DNA from: Cyanobacteriota bacterium
Lineage (GTDB): Bacteria > Cyanobacteriota > Cyanobacteriia > Cyanobacteriales > Nostocaceae
Assembly: GCA_046045965.1 (NCBI GenBank)
Contig: JBJOKS010000019.1
Location: 51,361 to 115,360, forward strand
Direction of reading: 5' to 3'
Length of the DNA stretch: 64,000 nt
Shown here: positions 19,484-29,211 of the stretch, one piece after another
How the letters are laid out: each line of letters opens with the position of its first letter
Position numbering within the stretch: the stretch's first letter is position 1
The notes under the pieces: model-generated
Database searches by the model: none
What the model was told of the DNA's origin: nothing
The model's input: the letters and a program-made list of their open reading frames with translations, nothing else
Made by a program: the position numbers and the translations under genes

Positions 19484-19637
19484 GGGAACAGGGAACAGGG
19501 AACAGAAGGCAAGAGTTTATTCTTCCCATTCCCCAATCACCAATCACCAGTCCCCACTCCCAGTTGCATAAAAAGTGGAGGTTTTCATTTTTTGTGCTAT
19601 AACCCACACATAAAATGATTTTAGACAGAAGCGACTA

Positions 19638-22196
19638 ATGGAACCAGACAAACTAACCAGGTTTAAAGAGTACGGTGAGTTTATCCTCCGCAAAATTGAC
19701 TCTGTACCGCAACATCCCTCCCAACAAGAAGATTGGGTCCCTACTAGCCTGGATGACTGTCTAATGCGCTTGCGAGAAGCTGCACAAAAGACTGTGGAAA
19801 TGGCCACTTCACCTGTGAAAATTGGTGTGATGGGTGAATTTAGCAGTGGTAAAAGTTTGCTGTTAGGAAGTTTAATTGGTTATGCGGATGCCTTACCTGT
19901 GAGTGAAAATCCGACTACAGGAAATGTGACTGCAATTCATATCAAACCACAGGAAGGTTTTGCTACTACTCACATAGATAATTACACTGTTGAGTATTTA
20001 TCTCATGAAGGGGTAAATGAGTGTTTACACTTCATGTTAGCAGAAGCAAACCGTCGTGCTGTAGCTGCTGGTTTACCACCTTTACAAGTTTCTAAAATTA
20101 AAACTGGTAAAGATATTTCTACTTGGTGTGAAGAAGCTTGGAAGAGTTCCAATAATTTAGAATTACGCTATCTTTTACGGGAATTAGTGTTATTTTTGCG
20201 GGCTTATCAAGCCTATGGAGAAGCTTTATGTGGTAAGCATTATCACATTGATGCAGAAACAGCAAAGGAAGGTTTACAATTAATTGAATTGCCGATGGCG
20301 ATTCAAACGTTAAGATTTGATGATTTACCGCCGGCACATATTCGTTTACCGAGTGCGCCCCAAGTTCTCCAAACTCAATTATTACAAAATAGTTTTCACC
20401 TGATTCGTAGAGTTGATATTGAAGTCAAAATATCAAGGGAAATTTGGGATTTATCTGGTGCGGAAGAATTTGTATTATTAGATTTTCCCGGTTTAGGTGC
20501 GGCTAATTCTGGTGCGCGAGATACATTTTTATCATTAAGAGAATTGGCACAGGTGCAAACAATTTTAGTGTTATTAAATGGTAAATCACCGGGGAGCGAT
20601 CGCGCCAACAAAATATTTACCATGATGCAGCAACAACGCCCCGGACAAGATTTAAAAGATTTAATTCTGGTAGGTGTGGGACGTTTTGATCAACTACCTT
20701 TAGATAGTGAAGGTGGGGAAAGAATTTTAGATTTTTTAATTGCAGATCATCCTAACGCCCAACCTTTACAAACAGACGTAGTTTTTCAGAAATTAAAAGT
20801 TCTGCAAACTATCATTGATGGTGCAGAGGCTTTTACTACCCAAAAAGACCGCATCGTTTTATTATCACCATTGTTAGGGTTAGCAGAATTAGCCAAACGT
20901 TCGACTACAGTTAAAGCCGGTTCCGAAGAATTTTTAGCTAATTTAGATTATCCTGATTATCTAGAACGTTCCAAGAAATTACAACATAAATGGGGTAAAT
21001 TAAGCGAAAAATTATTAACAACTGAACCGCGTAATTCTCTAGGTAGACAGTTAGGTTATTTTGCCCAAGATGGGGGTGTTAGTAAACTGCGGGAATTGAT
21101 TCAAAATCATGTAGCTACTCATGGTTTAAAACAATTATATGAAGATACCCGCAGGGCGGCTGATCTTATTCATCAACAACAAGAACAACTGAAATATATC
21201 ATCGCTGAAATTCACGAACAAGGCATACCTACGGCTGATAGTCCGGCGTTAATTGAGTTACGTTTAGCTATTGAAAGTTTAGATAAAACTTACAGAAACT
21301 TTCAAAAAGACTTGGGTAAAGAACCACTCAAAGATAGACGGGGACTGGTCGTTAGCGATGTGATCAAAGATGAATTAACCTATAGAATTCTCAATTGGAA
21401 TCAATGGACTTTACTATTTAATAAATGTCAAAATGGGACAATTGCTTTAGCAGAATCTAAAGGTGCTGCGGGGAAATTATTTGACAGAGGAAATAGAGTT
21501 AATAATTCCCTACCTACTAAGAGTGATGACTTTTATCCAGAGTTTGAAAAGACAGTTAAAGAACTAGAAGATTTTGCTCGCGATCGCATTCGTCAAGCTG
21601 TGGTAGACTTGTTGAATAAATTAGCCCATCAAGTAGTGCTAGAACGGGAGAAATTACAAGCAATTCTTAATCCTGAAATGGAACAATTTATTGAAGATAC
21701 ATTTGGAGTTGAAGCCGCAGATTTATTTTATAAACTCCTGTTAGGATGTGATCCAAACCAATGGAAAGAAGCGATTATTGTGGAAATAAATAATCAAGAT
21801 AAATCAATCTCTCCTGAAATTATGTTTCCCCTAGCACGACGGGATGAAAAACACAGTATTGGACAAATATTTGATTGGTCTCCAGAGAGAAATCAATCTT
21901 CATCTCGTGCAGCAAATCATCAACTTTTTGTTTTACGACTGCGAGATGAAATTACAGCTAGTGCTAGTCTGCACCTTGTCCAATATATCAGCGAAGTTAA
22001 TCAACAAGTGAATGCAGAATTAGAAGGAATTTTAGATCAAATAATTCCCAGTTTACAAAACTTGTCTAAAAAAGAAGAACTTCTCAGATATATTGCTGCT
22101 GGAGACTCAACCCCAGAATTAGCAATTCCTAATTGGTTAGAAATTCTTGCAGATATTGCATCAATTAATGAGAGTGATATTTATGAGTATTTTTAA
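19638..22196 (+). CDS. Dynamin-like / SrfC-like P-loop GTPase
   Basis: G1 GEFSSGKS, G2 NPTTG, G3 LLDFPGLG, G4-like GRFD; helical C-terminal half; 852 aa. Confidence 0.75.
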   Translation: MEPDKLTRFKEYGEFILRKIDSVPQHPSQQEDWVPTSLDDCLMRLREAAQKTVEMATSPVKIGVMGEFSSGKSLLLGSLIGYADALPVSENPTTGNVTAIHIKPQEGFATTHIDNYTVEYLSHEGVNECLHFMLAEANRRAVAAGLPPLQVSKIKTGKDISTWCEEAWKSSNNLELRYLLRELVLFLRAYQAYGEALCGKHYHIDAETAKEGLQLIELPMAIQTLRFDDLPPAHIRLPSAPQVLQTQLLQNSFHLIRRVDIEVKISREIWDLSGAEEFVLLDFPGLGAANSGARDTFLSLRELAQVQTILVLLNGKSPGSDRANKIFTMMQQQRPGQDLKDLILVGVGRFDQLPLDSEGGERILDFLIADHPNAQPLQTDVVFQKLKVLQTIIDGAEAFTTQKDRIVLLSPLLGLAELAKRSTTVKAGSEEFLANLDYPDYLERSKKLQHKWGKLSEKLLTTEPRNSLGRQLGYFAQDGGVSKLRELIQNHVATHGLKQLYEDTRRAADLIHQQQEQLKYIIAEIHEQGIPTADSPALIELRLAIESLDKTYRNFQKDLGKEPLKDRRGLVVSDVIKDELTYRILNWNQWTLLFNKCQNGTIALAESKGAAGKLFDRGNRVNNSLPTKSDDFYPEFEKTVKELEDFARDRIRQAVVDLLNKLAHQVVLEREKLQAILNPEMEQFIEDTFGVEAADLFYKLLLGCDPNQWKEAIIVEINNQDKSISPEIMFPLARRDEKHSIGQIFDWSPERNQSSSRAANHQLFVLRLRDEITASASLHLVQYISEVNQQVNAELEGILDQIIPSLQNLSKKEELLRYIAAGDSTPELAIPNWLEILADIASINESDIYEYF

Positions 22197-22254
22197 AGGA
22201 AGAAGGGAACAGGGAACAGTAAATAGGTATTAGTCTTAGGTTTTTTCCGCGTCT

Positions 22255-22328
22255 ACCAATTACCAATTAGCAATTACCCATTACCCATTACCCATTACCC
22301 ATTACCCATTACCCATTACCCATTACCA
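22255..22328. repeat. STRR heptamer array (TTACCCA/TTACCAA)n
   Basis: About 10 tandem units ending just before the ATG at 22339. Confidence 0.95.
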
Positions 22329-22338
22329 AACTTAAATT

Positions 22339-25300
22339 ATGCCTGTGGAAATTAATCTTCCACCCAAATATCAACTGAAAGTTAAAGAAAATCAAAGTTT
22401 GGATTTACCAGCTATCCAAATTGTCGCTACAAATAGTAATATTCCTCATATTTCTAGTATTACTTGTAGCGTTAAAGGAACACCCACAGAATTAGCAACG
22501 GAAATTCAACAAACTTATAAACACTTTAACTCTGCTACACCGCAAAAAATCTCTAACTTATGTCAATTAGGACAATATCCTTATCAGTTAGAGAACCCTT
22601 TAAGCGAAACAGTCAACTGTAATTTACAAGTGATTGTGGAGTATTTTGATTCTGATGCTACAGGAAAACCAATATTATCTATTAAGAAAAATATGGGTGT
22701 TTCCTGTAATCTTTGGTTTACACCTGATTTTGAAACAACAACAAATAAACCTATGAATCCTTTTGAATTAGATACCTATCTCAATAAATTAAGTCAACAA
22801 TTAAGTGAAAAACTCAACGAAAAACCTCAGAAAAGATTTCCTGGTTGGTTCGCGGTAGATTTTGGGACTTCTAACTCTACAGTCACACTTTTTGACCCTA
22901 TTGAAGTACCCATTGCGGAAGTTTTACCCAGAGAACAAGAATTAAGATTACGTCAAAGGTTAGCAGAATGGTTAAATTCTCCTGCTGCTTCAGCTTTACC
23001 AGATATAGGTGTAAATGAGTGGGAAAAGTTTATTGCTAATATTAGTAAAAACTTAGAAATTGAACCAGAACAATTAAGCGAAGTTTTTGAAAGTGATAAT
23101 AAAGAAATCTTTTTAGAAGCAATTCGCCAAATTGAATTATGTTTAGGAAATAGTGAGAGATTTCGCCGCGCTGTTAGCAAAAAACTTTATCAAATATATC
23201 ACGAAGTTTTTAGAGTTCCCACTTTAGAATCACAAAATTTGATTCCTGTAGTTTTAGATATTGACAGACGGGAAACAGAAATTCCCAGCGAAATGGAAGT
23301 ATCACAAATAGAACCCTTAAAATTGCAGATGGGTAGAGAAGCAAGGGATAATAGAAAAAAAGCCATTGCCCAAGGTACAATTACTTCTGTTAAGGATATA
23401 ATTAGCAGATTTCATCATTCACCTAAACGTTATTTTGGACAAAATCGTACCTTTCCAGTGATATTAAATGAGGAAGAAAACAACATTCAAGTTAATCAAT
23501 TAATTCAAGCAGCATGGGCGCATTTAATTGAATTAACAGAAGATTATCGTCAACGTGCTAGGAGGAGATTTTCTGAAGGAGATTTATTAACAGGAGTTTT
23601 CACCTATCCTACAGTTGCACCTCCAGTAGTGAGAAAAGAAATTAAAGCATTAGTAGAAGAATTAGGAATTGATGATGTCCAAACAGCTTATGATGAAGCG
23701 GTTTCTGTAGCTATCTTTTTCTTATGGCGAGAATTTGGTGGGAATTTAAATATTGGTATTGAATCATTTAAAACTCGTTGTCGTCAAGAAAAAAATAAAT
23801 GGTCACAAAATGTTTTAGTTTTAGATATCGGTGGTGGAACTACAGACTTAGCATTAATTGAATTGACATTAGAAGATAAAACTCCATTTTTTGCAGATCA
23901 TGAAGATCGGGGTTTAGGTGGACGTTATTATAAACTGACACCGAAATTATTAGGTTCTTCTGGACATTTACAGTTAGGTGGTGAGTTAATTACCCTACGC
24001 ATTTTTAGACTTTTAAAAGTTGCTATTGCCGATTTTCTTTTAACAGCAATAACCAACGGAGACATAGAAAGCGACAAATTAGAAGATTTAATCAACTCAG
24101 AATTAAACGAACGCTTTTTAGAAGATGGCAAATTTAAAAGTGGCAGTTTATTAAAGTGTGTAGACAAAGAAAACCCCGAAGGTGACGTAGCTTTCAAAGA
24201 TGCTTTAGATACAGCCGAAAAAGTATTACCTACCCGATGGCAACAAGCACCCCAACGTCTACAAACATTTTACACCCTGTGGGATCATGCGGAATCTGCA
24301 AAATTAAAATTAGGGCAAAAATCACCCGCAGATGGTTCTTTATTCACCTTCACCCTTTCCGAACAACAAATTAGTGAACTCCTTGCCCAAAGTGCAGTTA
24401 AATTTCAAATAATTATCCCTGATGCTATCTCCATAACCATAGACAGTCAACAATTTGAACGGGCGGCAATTTCCGCAATTAAAGAAGCAATAGGTATTGC
24501 CAAAGGCTTGATGGAAAGCCGTTTAAATGCAGACAATAAACAAAAAGTAGACTGGTTAATTCTCTCGGGTAAAACCTGCAATTTGGATTTAGTACAAAAA
24601 CAAATCTACCAAGAATTTAGCAAATCTCCCTATTTTGTTTGGAACCCAGAACGCATTACCTTCGTTTTAGAATTTACCAAATTAGCAACTTCCGCAGGTG
24701 CTTGTTACGCCGAAAAATTAAGAAGATTAAGATTTGATCCCGAAGAATCTAAAAGCTTACTGCGTAAAGGTGCAAACCAGCTAGAAATAGATGTCAAAAA
24801 CCTATTTTATTACCTACCTTGCAACTTCAAACGCAAAACCCAAAGTAGCGAATTATTATCTATATTCAACGCGGGACAAGAACTTTATCAACTTGCAGCG
24901 TGGGAAAGTGTAGCTAAAGTGCGGACAAATTGGCAAGGTATCCAATTAACAAACATTATCTATCGTCAAGACTATGAAGATGGAGAATTGCGTTTATGGG
25001 GTAGCTTTGATGGTAAAAATTTACTAGAGAAATTAGGGATGGAAGAACCAGAATTTCTCAAAAAAATTAAAGTGCAATTTGAAATAGATCAAACCTTACA
25101 ATTTAGCGTTTTACTATGTCAAGGTAATCCCCATTATTTAATAGATGATCAGGGAATTAACATCAATTATGTCATATCCGCAAATTCAGAACCAGCCGAT
25201 TTATTTACTGATGAACAATTAAAATGGAATATCGCCATTGAACAACCCCGTAAAGACTTAACCGATGGTGATATCGCCATCAATGTATTAGAATCAGCAA

Positions 25301-25737
25301 CAGTTGATCAACCAGATGCTTATCATTTAGTATTTGCAGTTGATAGCAATCAAAATCAATCTTTACAAACATTTCACTATTTACAAGATGGTGTTAACGA
25401 ACCAGGAAAAGGGTTAATTAGTAATCCTTTACCTCCCTTCCCACAAAATGGTCAACACACTTTTTATATTTATCAAACAGATAGCGAAACCAATACCAAA
25501 AAATGGATACGTATCGGCGCACTTAGTAAACCAGATATCACCACAGATTATCCCTGTCAATATCATGTCACACTTGATAATAAAGGTATATTAAGAATGC
25601 ACGCAGGTGAAGTACCTTATTGGACATCACATAATCAAGAATGTCTGAAACAAGAAGGATGTGTTTATCGTGCAGAATTAGAATTACAACCCAATGAAAT
25701 TGATAAAGAACGCGATCCTTTTTGCGGAATACATTAA
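22339..25737 (+). CDS. Large Hsp70/actin-fold ATPase (SrfB-like), not canonical DnaK
   Basis: Phosphate-1 AVDFGTSNS, HHSPKRY, TYP, DEAVSVA, phosphate-2 VLDIGGGTTD, LGGELIT, AESAKLKL, adenosine-like ILSGKTCNL; 1132 aa. Confidence 0.78.
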   Translation: MPVEINLPPKYQLKVKENQSLDLPAIQIVATNSNIPHISSITCSVKGTPTELATEIQQTYKHFNSATPQKISNLCQLGQYPYQLENPLSETVNCNLQVIVEYFDSDATGKPILSIKKNMGVSCNLWFTPDFETTTNKPMNPFELDTYLNKLSQQLSEKLNEKPQKRFPGWFAVDFGTSNSTVTLFDPIEVPIAEVLPREQELRLRQRLAEWLNSPAASALPDIGVNEWEKFIANISKNLEIEPEQLSEVFESDNKEIFLEAIRQIELCLGNSERFRRAVSKKLYQIYHEVFRVPTLESQNLIPVVLDIDRRETEIPSEMEVSQIEPLKLQMGREARDNRKKAIAQGTITSVKDIISRFHHSPKRYFGQNRTFPVILNEEENNIQVNQLIQAAWAHLIELTEDYRQRARRRFSEGDLLTGVFTYPTVAPPVVRKEIKALVEELGIDDVQTAYDEAVSVAIFFLWREFGGNLNIGIESFKTRCRQEKNKWSQNVLVLDIGGGTTDLALIELTLEDKTPFFADHEDRGLGGRYYKLTPKLLGSSGHLQLGGELITLRIFRLLKVAIADFLLTAITNGDIESDKLEDLINSELNERFLEDGKFKSGSLLKCVDKENPEGDVAFKDALDTAEKVLPTRWQQAPQRLQTFYTLWDHAESAKLKLGQKSPADGSLFTFTLSEQQISELLAQSAVKFQIIIPDAISITIDSQQFERAAISAIKEAIGIAKGLMESRLNADNKQKVDWLILSGKTCNLDLVQKQIYQEFSKSPYFVWNPERITFVLEFTKLATSAGACYAEKLRRLRFDPEESKSLLRKGANQLEIDVKNLFYYLPCNFKRKTQSSELLSIFNAGQELYQLAAWESVAKVRTNWQGIQLTNIIYRQDYEDGELRLWGSFDGKNLLEKLGMEEPEFLKKIKVQFEIDQTLQFSVLLCQGNPHYLIDDQGININYVISANSEPADLFTDEQLKWNIAIEQPRKDLTDGDIAINVLESATVDQPDAYHLVFAVDSNQNQSLQTFHYLQDGVNEPGKGLISNPLPPFPQNGQHTFYIYQTDSETNTKKWIRIGALSKPDITTDYPCQYHVTLDNKGILRMHAGEVPYWTSHNQECLKQEGCVYRAELELQPNEIDKERDPFCGIH

Positions 25738-25768
25738 ATGAGTTAACAGTTGTCAGAAAAATGCACCA

Positions 25769-25885
25769 GCGATTAGAAATCGCGGCTATACTATACAGAC
25801 AAAACCCACCTCCGTGGGTTCTATCTAAATTTTTAATTAGTCCACGCAGGTGGGCTTAGTTTGTGTAGTAGCGATTTCTAATCGC
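25769..25885. mobile_element. MITE/REPIN-like palindromic element
   Basis: Termini GCGATTAGAAATCGC...GCGATTTCTAATCGC; inner arms also pair (TACAGACAAAACCCACC / GGTGGGCTTAGTTTGTGTA). Confidence 0.7.
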
Positions 25886-25908
25886 CCTTTTAAAATATCC
25901 TCTTTCCT

Positions 25909-27039
25909 ATGATCCAACATTTACAGCAATTATTAGCAACAGAAAATTCTCAAATCTCTCAATTATTAAAATTGCACTTATACGGACTAGAAGCAATTTT
26001 AAATCAAGCCCAGATAGAGTATCTAAATGATCCAGGTAATGATTTATGTGAAAAGGTAATACTAGAAATTCACAACCTTTTACAACCTCAACTAATTCCC
26101 GAAAATATAGAAACTGTAGAACCTGTAGAAAATGTAGTTATTGATGAATCTCAACCTGATCAATTATTAAATGAACTCAGAGAAGTTTTTCATACAGATT
26201 TAGAATTAAATTTTTATTTAGGAGATACACCATTACAAAGTCAAAATGATGCTGATTTATGGAATGAAATTCACCGTAAATTGTTACGAGTTCCTGAAGA
26301 TTTAGCCACATCTTGGCGAAAATATGCTTTAGAAATGGCGAAAAAAATTGGCGCAACAGAAGATTATGTAAATCTTGTTCACCTACCTTTTGTGCGGGAT
26401 GAAATTATTTATCCTGGTTTAAATGGTACTATCCAAGCTAGAGGTTTATGTTTGTCAAAAAAAGCCCTTCTCAAATCAGATATTGGACAATTATATAATT
26501 CGGAAGATTTGCATTTATTAGCAGGATTTTTACTTTTATATACTAAATTTATAGAGATAGAACCTGATTTACATCATGCTTTAAAAAGTGTGTTTAGCTT
26601 TGATGTTGTTTCCTTGCATTCCCAACCAGAACAACGTCAGCTTTATCTGCAAACATTGAGCGATCGCTTACAACGTACCCAAAAAACTGAGGAAAATACT
26701 GATCCGATTTACAATCTACGTGCTTGGCTTGACATAGATGAAGCCATACATTCCCTAGTATTCCTTCCTCCAGCCGAGCGTTATTCCTGGTGGGGTAAGT
26801 TACAACAAGAATCAAGACGTATTATTAAAAAAGTAGCCAATAAAGCGATAAAAGCCGGTTATGATGTGCGAATTAGACAATTATCAGGACTTTATGCTGA
26901 TATTTGTGCTTATTCCAAAGATGATCTACAATTAGAGCATGGTGGAACACCTGGAGAAGTATTAACCTGTTTGCGTTTATATGCACGAATAAATCAAGAA
27001 GAAAATCCGGGGAGGGTGCTATTTCGGTCTTTACGGTGA
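25909..27039 (+). CDS. Hypothetical protein, possible GrpE-like C-terminus
   Basis: 376 aa, mostly helical; ends GGTPGEVLTCLRLYARINQEENPGRVLF. Confidence 0.75.
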   Translation: MIQHLQQLLATENSQISQLLKLHLYGLEAILNQAQIEYLNDPGNDLCEKVILEIHNLLQPQLIPENIETVEPVENVVIDESQPDQLLNELREVFHTDLELNFYLGDTPLQSQNDADLWNEIHRKLLRVPEDLATSWRKYALEMAKKIGATEDYVNLVHLPFVRDEIIYPGLNGTIQARGLCLSKKALLKSDIGQLYNSEDLHLLAGFLLLYTKFIEIEPDLHHALKSVFSFDVVSLHSQPEQRQLYLQTLSDRLQRTQKTEENTDPIYNLRAWLDIDEAIHSLVFLPPAERYSWWGKLQQESRRIIKKVANKAIKAGYDVRIRQLSGLYADICAYSKDDLQLEHGGTPGEVLTCLRLYARINQEENPGRVLFRSLR

Positions 27040-27059: not shown

Positions 27060-27072
27060 CTGCTCATCTATG

Positions 27073-27279
27073 CTACATACCAGGAGTATTAGGAGGTGTA
27101 GGACGGGGAGTAGTAGGAGGTGTTGTAGGACGATCTTCTGGTTTACGTTCAGCCTCAGCTTCAGGAGTTTGAGCAAATATAGTGTGTTGTGTGTTCGTAG
27201 CTTGAAGGTCTTTGGGTATGGCCGCAACAGCAACGGTTCCTAAAAATGCTAGTAAAGCCACGGGTGCTAAAAGTCTCAT
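27073..27279 (-). CDS. Small secreted Pro/Thr-rich protein
   Basis: AAGGA SD; signal-like MRLLAPVALLAFLGTVAVA; PTTPP-rich tail; 68 aa. Confidence 0.6.
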   Translation of the reverse strand: MRLLAPVALLAFLGTVAVAAIPKDLQATNTQHTIFAQTPEAEAERKPEDRPTTPPTTPRPTPPNTPGM

Positions 27280-27479
27280 ATTGTTATTCCTTTGAAGACT
27301 TACGTAACCCTATTTTGAACAATCTGCAAATTCTATATATCTCGCTTTAGGTAGTCTTGCTTATGTTACTTAAGTTATAGAAACTCATTTCCAAAAAATT
27401 CTAAATTTGTTGTTTCAGGAAGATGTAAAGAGGGAAGGTTGGGTTTATCTAATAACAAATTTATCCTCAATTTCTCCAC

Positions 27480-28404: not shown

Positions 28405-29211
28405 ATGATTAAAACTCCTCTCCGTTATCCTGGTGGTAAATCAAGAGCGATCAAACAAATAGCCCAACATTTACCAGCAAACTTTACCGAATTTAGAGAA
28501 CCATTAGTTGGTGGTGGTTCTGTTTTTATTTATCTTAAACAAACCTACCCTAACTTAAAAGTTTGGATCAATGATTTAAACAGAGAACTATATTTATTTT
28601 GGTATATTGCCCAAGAAAATTTATCTAAATTAGTTTCCGAAATTCTCTATATCAAAGAAACCCAAAAAGATGGAAAAAAGCTATTTACAGAATTAACCAA
28701 TATAGAAGATATTAATAAATTAACAGACTTAGAAAGAGCAGTTCGTTTTTTTGTCCTAAACAGAATTACCTTTTCAGGTACAATAGAATCAGGCGGATTT
28801 TCCTTGGAAGCATTTCATAAACGTTTCACCGATTCATCAATAGAAAGATTAGAAAAATTAGCAGAAATTTTAACACCAGATATCAGAATTACAAACCTAG
28901 ATTACAGTGAACTATTACAAGCAGCAGGAAAAGATGTATTTATATTTCTAGATCCCCCTTATTTGGGCAATAAAAATTCCAAACTATATGGAAAAGATGG
29001 AGACTTACATACAAAATTTGATCATCAAAAATTTGCAGATCATTTAAAAACCTGTCCTCACAAATGGTTAGTCACCTACGACAACTCAGAACAAGTACAT
29101 CAAAACTTTACCTGGGCGAAAATTGCCCAATGGGAACTACAATATGGCATGAACAATTATAAACAGAAAACAGCAGAAAAAGGACAAGAACTTTTTATTA
29201 CTGGATCTTAA
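28405..29211 (+). CDS. Dam-family (D12 class) DNA adenine methyltransferase, probably GATC-specific orphan
   Basis: LRYPGGKS, EPLVGGGSV, NRITFSG, FLDPPY; no adjacent endonuclease. Confidence 0.88.
   Translation: MIKTPLRYPGGKSRAIKQIAQHLPANFTEFREPLVGGGSVFIYLKQTYPNLKVWINDLNRELYLFWYIAQENLSKLVSEILYIKETQKDGKKLFTELTNIEDINKLTDLERAVRFFVLNRITFSGTIESGGFSLEAFHKRFTDSSIERLEKLAEILTPDIRITNLDYSELLQAAGKDVFIFLDPPYLGNKNSKLYGKDGDLHTKFDHQKFADHLKTCPHKWLVTYDNSEQVHQNFTWAKIAQWELQYGMNNYKQKTAEKGQELFITGS

Follow-up and report, generated by a model that had tools for sequence, protein, structure and literature searches.

A three-gene module in the Nostocaceae appears to combine a dynamin-like GTPase with a giant, private Hsp70-class ATPase and a third protein that is probably the ATPase's nucleotide-exchange factor. 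The module lies within a 64,000-nt stretch of cyanobacterial DNA (referred to below as the window) and consists of three open reading frames (ORFs) on the plus strand: ORF1 (852 aa, 19638..22196), ORF2 (1132 aa, 22339..25737), and ORF3 (376 aa, 25909..27039). The gaps between them, of 142 nt and 171 nt, carry repeats, and the layout agrees with that described in an initial annotation made from the letters alone. The trio is probably one co-conserved and co-transcribed unit, and we tentatively read it as a switchable machine that may protect the filament against membrane damage or infection.

By its sequence, ORF2 belongs with the Hsp70-class ATPases of active type and has large insertions, given that K363, E453, D496, and the GGTTD motif at 498-503 are retained in all 68 homologues aligned; phosphate-1 residue D174 is kept in 66 of them, and the adenosine motifs of an Hsp70 ATPase domain are present as well. 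This conservation, together with a profile alignment to the DnaK ATPase domain (probability 97%, E 5.8e-11), bears out the intact Hsp70/actin phosphate-1 and phosphate-2 motifs and the large insertions noted initially, and in a profile search of the PDB the best DnaK match (E 1.6e-6) ranked ahead of MreB (E 0.025). The protein nonetheless falls under the Pfam HSP70 gathering score (13.4 bits vs 20.6). Its layout comprises a dispensable N-terminal domain (residues ~1-130), an ATPase domain with large insertions (166-800), and a beta-rich C-terminal region (~810-1132). The N-terminal ~130 residues (window 22339-22730) gave no family match; they are missing in many Nostoc homologues (forms of ~990 aa) and longer in planctomycete homologues. 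The C-terminus had been called unlike DnaK, which holds insofar as no helical lid is recognised (P 0.12 for residues 935-1132), but not wholly, since residues 800-940 align in register, weakly, with the DnaK substrate-binding beta domain (P 0.013, probability 3%). An Atlas search with residues 812-1132 returned nothing at 0.9 or above, the best row (0.83, to DUF5716_C) being a lead only, and single-sequence folding of ORF2 reached a predicted local distance difference test score (pLDDT) of 34. No relatives of ORF2 were found in plasmids, phages, or viral contigs. The window's genome also holds four canonical DnaK-length genes and a canonical GrpE and, apart from the canonical dnaK-grpE locus, a cluster of three Hsp70-family matches and one GrpE-family match (G000:C1:97359-103184).

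Searches of Pfam, NCBIfam, and PADLOC assigned ORF3 to no family, and none of 13 members of its family matched Pfam GrpE; the GrpE-like partner suspected initially was recovered by structure rather than by sequence. A profile search yielded 252 relatives at 50% clustering, 104 of which were used for a structure model with pLDDT 94. Foldseek placed GrpE structures in six of the top 11 rows for this model (best 1dkg_A, probability 0.91, E 0.026), with no GrpE row at E 0.001 or better. With VIA-align, residues 319-376 fit 9bls_B (Z 6.4, root-mean-square deviation [rmsd] 2.6, 57 aligned) and 1dkg_B (Z 6.0, rmsd 2.8, 56 aligned), and residues 265-374 fit 4ani_B (Z 5.7, rmsd 3.9, 88 residues); over the GrpE entries 1dkg, 9bls, 9blt, and 4ani, the fits to residues 265-374 or 319-376 span Z 5.7-6.4 and rmsd 2.6-3.9, and the structures ranked above GrpE are generic helical bundles. 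The model contains a GrpE-type C-terminal beta domain (residues 319-376, 26863..27036, plus strand) preceded by two short helices. Two related candidates were rejected: ORF3 as an internally duplicated pseudo-dimer (weak support at P 0.076, mean score 0.35 vs -1.2 for shuffled and -0.5 for reversed sequences), and a GrpE-like motif picked out by eye in residues 200-255 of P0437, ahead of an ORF1 homologue (1.7 bits vs 4.3 for the top shuffle).

Prediction of a complex between ORF2 166-800 and ORF3 12-376 gave a score of 0.78, vs 0.00 for the best control, and so passed a mark that is reached by 116 of 157 solved pairs and by 2 of 215 mismatched pairs; contact agreement between runs was at least 91%, and partner pLDDT at least 80. 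The contacting ORF2 residues (308-311, 334-345, and 641-649) correspond to DnaK residues 29-32 and ~53-61 and to the IIB helix before the AEKAK motif, the mapping of lobe I onto DnaK being itself weak (P 0.03), and the matched DnaK surface is the region that receives GrpE and other exchange factors (PMC10803776, PMC2940730). ORF2 D649 occupies the position of the acidic residue through which DnaK bridges to GrpE, and either D or E stands there in 56 of 68 homologues. ORF3 is thus predicted to bind across subdomains IB and IIB of ORF2, as GrpE does on DnaK. With the DnaK-GrpE system the pair shares the catalytic ATPase residues, the GrpE-like beta domain, and this predicted contact. The differences lie in the 110-residue insertion in lobe I of ORF2, its lobe II insertions, extra N-terminal domain, and lack of a recognised helical lid; in the size of ORF3, twice that of GrpE, its modelled intramolecular helical bundle, and the extra loop (227-232) that it uses for IIB; and in the J-domain gene, none of which was found in the trio locus by the window's ORF list and a Pfam scan.

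ORF1 matches Pfam Dynamin_N above the cut-off (E 1.6e-8), and the G1-G4-like GTPase motifs reported initially are recovered as GEFSSGKS at 66-73 (G1), T94 (G2), DFPG at 282-285 (G3), and RF[D/N] at 349-351 (G4-like). Among 87 homologues from several phyla, K72 and T94 are each kept in 86 and D282 in all 87; G3 reads DFPG in 86, and the G4-like motif is conserved. The best 19-residue hydropathy of ORF1 is 1.1, and just one of the 87 homologues exceeds 1.8; membership of the BDLP1-type membrane-inserting dynamins was rejected on these values, ORF1 having no paddle or transmembrane segment. At L023:2195-5716 and in P0446, an ordinary-type Hsp70 ATPase domain is fused N-terminally to an ORF1 homologue, at L023 in addition to an ORF2.

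The three genes are likely orthologous to alr1146, alr1147, and alr1148 of Nostoc strain PCC 7120, respectively. The two sets correspond in size, order, family-restricted distribution, and spacing of the promoter, and the orthology is drawn from these features rather than from direct sequence comparison. The PCC 7120 products are listed as unknown proteins (PMC4365693, PMC2823733, PMC3141674, PMC10287535). The listed lengths of 2644, 3487, and 1195 nt match the sizes of ORF1-3 once a 100-nt pad is removed. The authors of the signature-protein list that includes alr1146 are reportedly Gupta and Mathews. Simm et al. 2015 (PMC4365693) place alr1146-48 among the unknown genes of the heterocyst core genome (their Table 6), and alr1146 is given elsewhere as an 847-aa signature protein. 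The initial annotation knew of no characterisation in cyanobacteria; as to cataloguing this does not hold, since the GTPase-Hsp70 pair had been listed in PMC5827413 and the whole trio in PMC4365693, but a search of the literature, with bioRxiv supplements and most subscription papers outside it, found no functional test of the trio and no description of a GrpE-like third gene. What is new relative to print is the GrpE-like identity of the third gene and its predicted binding to ORF2, the recruitment of paralogues into TIR/iSTAND systems, and the uncoupling from nif.

A conserved extended -10 promoter element (19595..19602, plus strand) lies 43 nt upstream of the ORF1 start; the motif, TG[CT]TATAA, is found 43-45 nt upstream of ORF1 in all 21 regions of the window's clade and in 0 of 20 of a second clade. 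In PCC 7120, alr1146-48 form one transcription unit, TU00731, with a 29-nt 5' untranslated region, and the position of the element fits that start because its spacing is what such a leader requires. Because ORF1 has its own conserved promoter element, we leave the TetR gene upstream out of the unit. A second conserved element, GTTG-CA/TA-like, lies ~28 nt upstream of the -10 box (window 19560-19570) in most of the 21 clade members and may be a regulator site. A general promoter scan returned fewer sites than in shuffles. Contigs X1 and X2 of the RNA library include portions of each of the three genes as well as flanking stretches, with no listed piece bridging a junction, so they show no co-transcription.

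We take the window's family to be the heterocyst-forming Nostocaceae on the strength of the closest named proteins (Anabaena, Sphaerospermopsis, Nostoc); the genome counts that follow include kin and are not independent. ORF2 matches occur in 36 of 37 family genomes vs 0 of 263 other genomes of the phylum, and in a smaller sample in 22 of 24 vs 1 of 16. ORF1 and ORF3 are each present in 144 of 150 family genomes, the same six lacking both. Of these six, four were covered by ORF2 searches, and G328 and G341 lay outside them: G016 and G021 gave no ORF2, and none of G016, G021, G327, and G343 yielded a full match to the profile. Among 136 family genomes tallied, ORF1 and ORF3 lie within 8 kb of each other in 120 and within 13 kb in 125; they are far apart in five and on different contigs in six. 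Unrelated genes sit between trio members at three loci (an NB-ARC-TPR gene at L132:8416-11742, a gene judged Rpn-like by eye at L131:8852-9649, and an NRAMP transporter gene at L122:12597-13934), so the cyanobacterial unit tolerates interruption.

Beyond the family, named homologues come from non-heterocystous filamentous cyanobacteria (Kamptonema, Okeania, Symploca), Gemmataceae, Verrucomicrobiales, Frankia, and Dactylosporangium. Scanning GTDB genomes with an ORF3 motif adapted to high-GC codons returned 13 loci (12 in Actinomycetota, one in Fimbriiglobus), all encoding ORF3 and 12 with all three genes in order, so that the ordered trio recurs in Actinomycetota and Planctomycetota; at least eight of these high-GC trio loci have overlapping stop and start codons. 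Strong module matches were present in at least 6 of 400 other Actinomycetes genomes (four candidates were scored per genome, and three marginal rows at E ~6e-4 were left out of the count) and in 0 of 300 other Planctomycetota genomes. Heterocyst-forming cyanobacteria thus carry the module almost universally, and among other multicellular or complex bacteria it is rare, with a patchy distribution.

Extra copies of the family link the module to biological conflict systems. Seven were fetched, five with N-terminal additions of 210-360 aa on ORF1 and two (G424, G379) without. One extended ORF1 is a TIR_2 fusion (G359, E 1.4e-19); two extended copies directly follow EAD1-iSTAND, MoxR, and vWA genes (G020 and G416, iSTAND E 2e-24 and 2e-20, with EAD1, AAA, and VWA_CoxE matches); one, whose added N-terminal domain is unassigned and whose ORF2 is split, adjoins a caspase gene (G005); and the fifth, its added domain likewise unassigned, lies just upstream of the G020 cassette. 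All five keep G1-G3. The ORF2s of these extended copies form one supported clade nested in the cyanobacterial branch of a quick, midpoint-rooted tree made with no topology test. The pairwise ratio of nonsynonymous to synonymous substitution (dN/dS) was 0.44-0.47 for ORF2 of these copies (three pairs), vs 0.07-0.10 for core ORF2 (five pairs) and 0.17-0.26 for core ORF3 (four pairs), the core pairs all sharing the window sequence; the core trio is under strong purifying selection. Elsewhere, P0461 is an NB-ARC fusion, and loci L023, L024, and L112 have PP2C, vWA, kinase-like, or cNMP-binding neighbours. In five of six actinomycete trios fetched, a DUF4407 gene with two to four hydrophobic segments lies directly upstream, its product being a candidate membrane anchor. 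Further arrangements seen were EAD1-iSTAND, MoxR, and vWA cassettes in which the dynamin-like GTPase is fused to the module that follows (L124:264-5868, L125:2391-11515), L125 having in addition an EAD1-trypsin gene and an ORF3 that lies upstream of its cassette, and, beside the actinomycete trio L112, a second module in which an Hsp70-WD40 fusion comes after a tandem pair of dynamin-like genes (L112:13483-19364).

Kaur et al. 2020 (PMC7159879) describe iSTAND-MoxR-vWA ternary systems, with neither 'dynamin' nor 'SrfB' appearing in the main text or two text supplements. The extra copies in G020 and G416 occupy the effector position of such systems, whereas the window copy has no adjoining iSTAND, MoxR, or vWA gene. 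In the GAP1-N2 systems treated in that paper, a GTPase is likewise teamed with Hsp70 and GrpE, again in multicellular bacteria (PMC7159879), but the DO-GTPases require both GAP1 and a Walker B glutamate and are described there as nearly absent from cyanobacteria; DO-GTPase/GAP1 membership was rejected on the DFPG form of G3 and the lack of any GAP1 Pfam row for the three ORFs. Closest in print is the 'chaperone clade' of Jilly et al. 2018 (PMC5827413), 11 rows, all heterocyst-forming, in which a dynamin-like gene has a DnaK-domain gene downstream, under labels matching those on ORF2 homologues. That account names two genes, with no third gene, exchange factor, or function test. Our alignment A5 includes a homologue from Mastigocoleus testarum BC008 (P0435, 50% identity). 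The extended P-loop given there for cyanobacterial dynamin-like proteins (DLPs), GxxxxGKS/TxL/INALL/I, differs from that of ORF1, where L-G-S replaces N-A-L (PMC5827413).

With the protective dynamins (DynA, which gives phage resistance to B. subtilis [PMC8844932], Eleos/LeoABC, IniA/IniC, and SynDLP), ORF1 shares the dynamin-type G domain. The similarity is confined to the P-loop region (LeoA at E 4.4e-5; Campylobacter DLPs and SynDLP in the PDB), and Eleos membership was rejected, the match covering LeoA residues 46-102 of 559 only. The DynA effect on phage is said to work by delaying lysis. ORF1 differs from these proteins in being a single GTPase rather than a tandem pair, in having no hydrophobic paddle, and in its obligatory Hsp70 and GrpE-like partners.

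Under the mechanism we propose, ORF3 would dock across the ORF2 nucleotide cleft at IB and IIB, open it, and release ADP, as GrpE does for DnaK; ORF2 would use the cycle to bind and let go of a single dedicated client, ORF1 being the likeliest, and might load or strip ORF1 oligomers at the membrane; and ORF1 could then seal or constrict damaged membrane, limiting how far damage or phage travels along the filament. The dedicated NTP-driven machine envisaged in the initial annotation stands insofar as the genes are co-conserved and probably co-transcribed, with dynamin, Hsp70, and GrpE-like parts and contextual links to conflict; its membrane-remodelling role stays at the level of conjecture. 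A bolder version, which we regard as somewhat unlikely, is a three-part machine for immunity or damage containment in multicellular bacteria, whose dynamin-like effector would be gated by a giant private Hsp70 together with a GrpE mimic made of a single chain. The machine would move as a plug-in among actinomycetes, planctomycetes, and cyanobacterial TIR/iSTAND systems and would have become a fixed core function in heterocyst-formers, sealing filaments against spreading infection.

A number of observations weigh against the proposed mechanism or its protective role. The likeness of ORF3 to GrpE is modest (Foldseek E 0.026, Z ~6), ORF3 was not significantly similar to 29 cyanobacterial GrpEs by hhalign or hmmsearch, and the complex pass may reflect resemblance to DnaK-GrpE complexes, which, since such structures are already solved, makes it a sign of likeness rather than of binding. 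A hydropathy scan found no segment of transmembrane strength in any of the window's three proteins, so membrane binding would be peripheral. Conflict-type neighbours were absent from seven Actinomadura/Spirillospora loci and from L029, and PADLOC returned only a P-loop match for the trio. Because the conflict-context copies form one nested clade, they may reflect a single recruitment of a housekeeping module, and conflict systems do borrow modules from ordinary subsystems (PMC7159879). Near-universal retention and dN/dS below 0.1 are likewise unlike typical defence systems. Finally, transcripts of alr1146-48 rise 9.1-, 2.5-, and 8.7-fold by 12 h after nitrogen step-down (from 0.8, 1.5, and 0.15 to 7.2, 3.7, and 1.3 reads per kilobase per million [RPKM]), and nif-less G409 has a frameshifted ORF2 beside an intact ORF1 and ORF3, in keeping with a heterocyst link.

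These last points suggest that the same machine could instead be developmental, remodelling membrane or septum during heterocyst, hormogonium, or akinete differentiation or filament breakage, with the conflict copies as later borrowings. The near-perfect restriction to the heterocyst-forming family, the place of alr1146-48 in the heterocyst core genome (PMC4365693), the low dN/dS of the core copies, and the nested position of the conflict copies all favour such a role. Yet a later RNA-seq experiment gave a log2 change of only 0.99 at 9 h and -0.07, the baseline, at 24 h after step-down, the upstream regions compared have no position in common at which a DIF1 or NtcA consensus occurs, and non-heterocystous Kamptonema, Okeania, and Symploca carry homologues. 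Nor does the trio follow nif: five of the family genomes without it have nifD matches (the sixth, G343, lay outside the nifD check), G323 and G011 have an intact nifD with all three trio genes broken or partial, and G329 (95% complete) has no nifD-family match, one PfaA-type locus, and all three genes intact. Being intact in nif-less G329 and missing or decayed in seven genomes with nif, the trio is not a nitrogen-fixation part. An nifH survey (123 of 150) was dropped as a test when four of five rechecked nifH-less genomes proved to have nifD. On balance we consider the developmental role possible but doubtful.

Two other explanations seem to us improbable, the second more so than the first. 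ORF2 and ORF3 might be a general stress chaperone or secretion helper of SrfABC type, serving several clients with ORF1 as an accessory GTPase, as hinted by the labels 'virulence factor SrfB' and 'molecular chaperone' on ORF2 homologues, the possible substrate-binding beta domain, and a weak SrfB match (E 1.6e-5). An actin-like ATPase beside a P-loop protein, with the phosphate-2 region in common, is indeed what the two arrangements share (PMC6950479). The SrfB match, however, scores 23.6 bits against a Pfam cut-off of 27.1 and covers 70 of 992 positions, and with no SrfC row at E 0.1 and no SrfA match, SrfB/SrfC membership is not supported. The gene order is presumably also the reverse of srfABC. 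Low transcript levels (RPKM 0.1-7), the canonical DnaK-length genes and GrpE elsewhere in the genome, and the lack of a J-domain gene in the locus further disfavour a general chaperone. As for a cytoskeleton-like polymer, in which actin-fold ORF2 and the GTPase would co-assemble to shape or divide cells under ORF3 control of nucleotide state, the actin/Hsp70 fold with large surface insertions and the mostly filamentous carriers are compatible with it; against it stand the closer match of ORF2 to Hsp70 than to MreB and the loss of the trio in six family genomes and its decay in two.

The remaining features of the locus touch the module less directly. Gap 1 holds a heptamer tandem repeat array (22254..22330, plus strand), which we take to be of the STRR type, and gap 2 a nested inverted-repeat element without strand (25768..25885); both are incidental. 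The neighbours of the window trio are TetR, Rieske, cytochrome b, and Dam-type methylase genes. On the minus strand, a short ORF-like stretch of under 90 aa (27070-27280) with a signal-peptide-like start and Pro/Thr-rich repeats converges on ORF3. An orphan D12-class adenine methylase gene occupies 28405-29211, with a similar gene near the trio in G323 and G017.

For the heterocyst-formers, three of their most conserved unknown genes thereby gain a concrete proposed mechanism, testable in a genetically tractable strain. The contrast between the conserved core copy and the fast-evolving TIR- and iSTAND-linked copies offers a test case for the exchange of parts between defence and housekeeping in multicellular bacteria. 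If the proposal is true, bacterial dynamins would have a new mode of regulation, through a dedicated Hsp70 that serves the dynamin and has a divergent exchange factor to itself.

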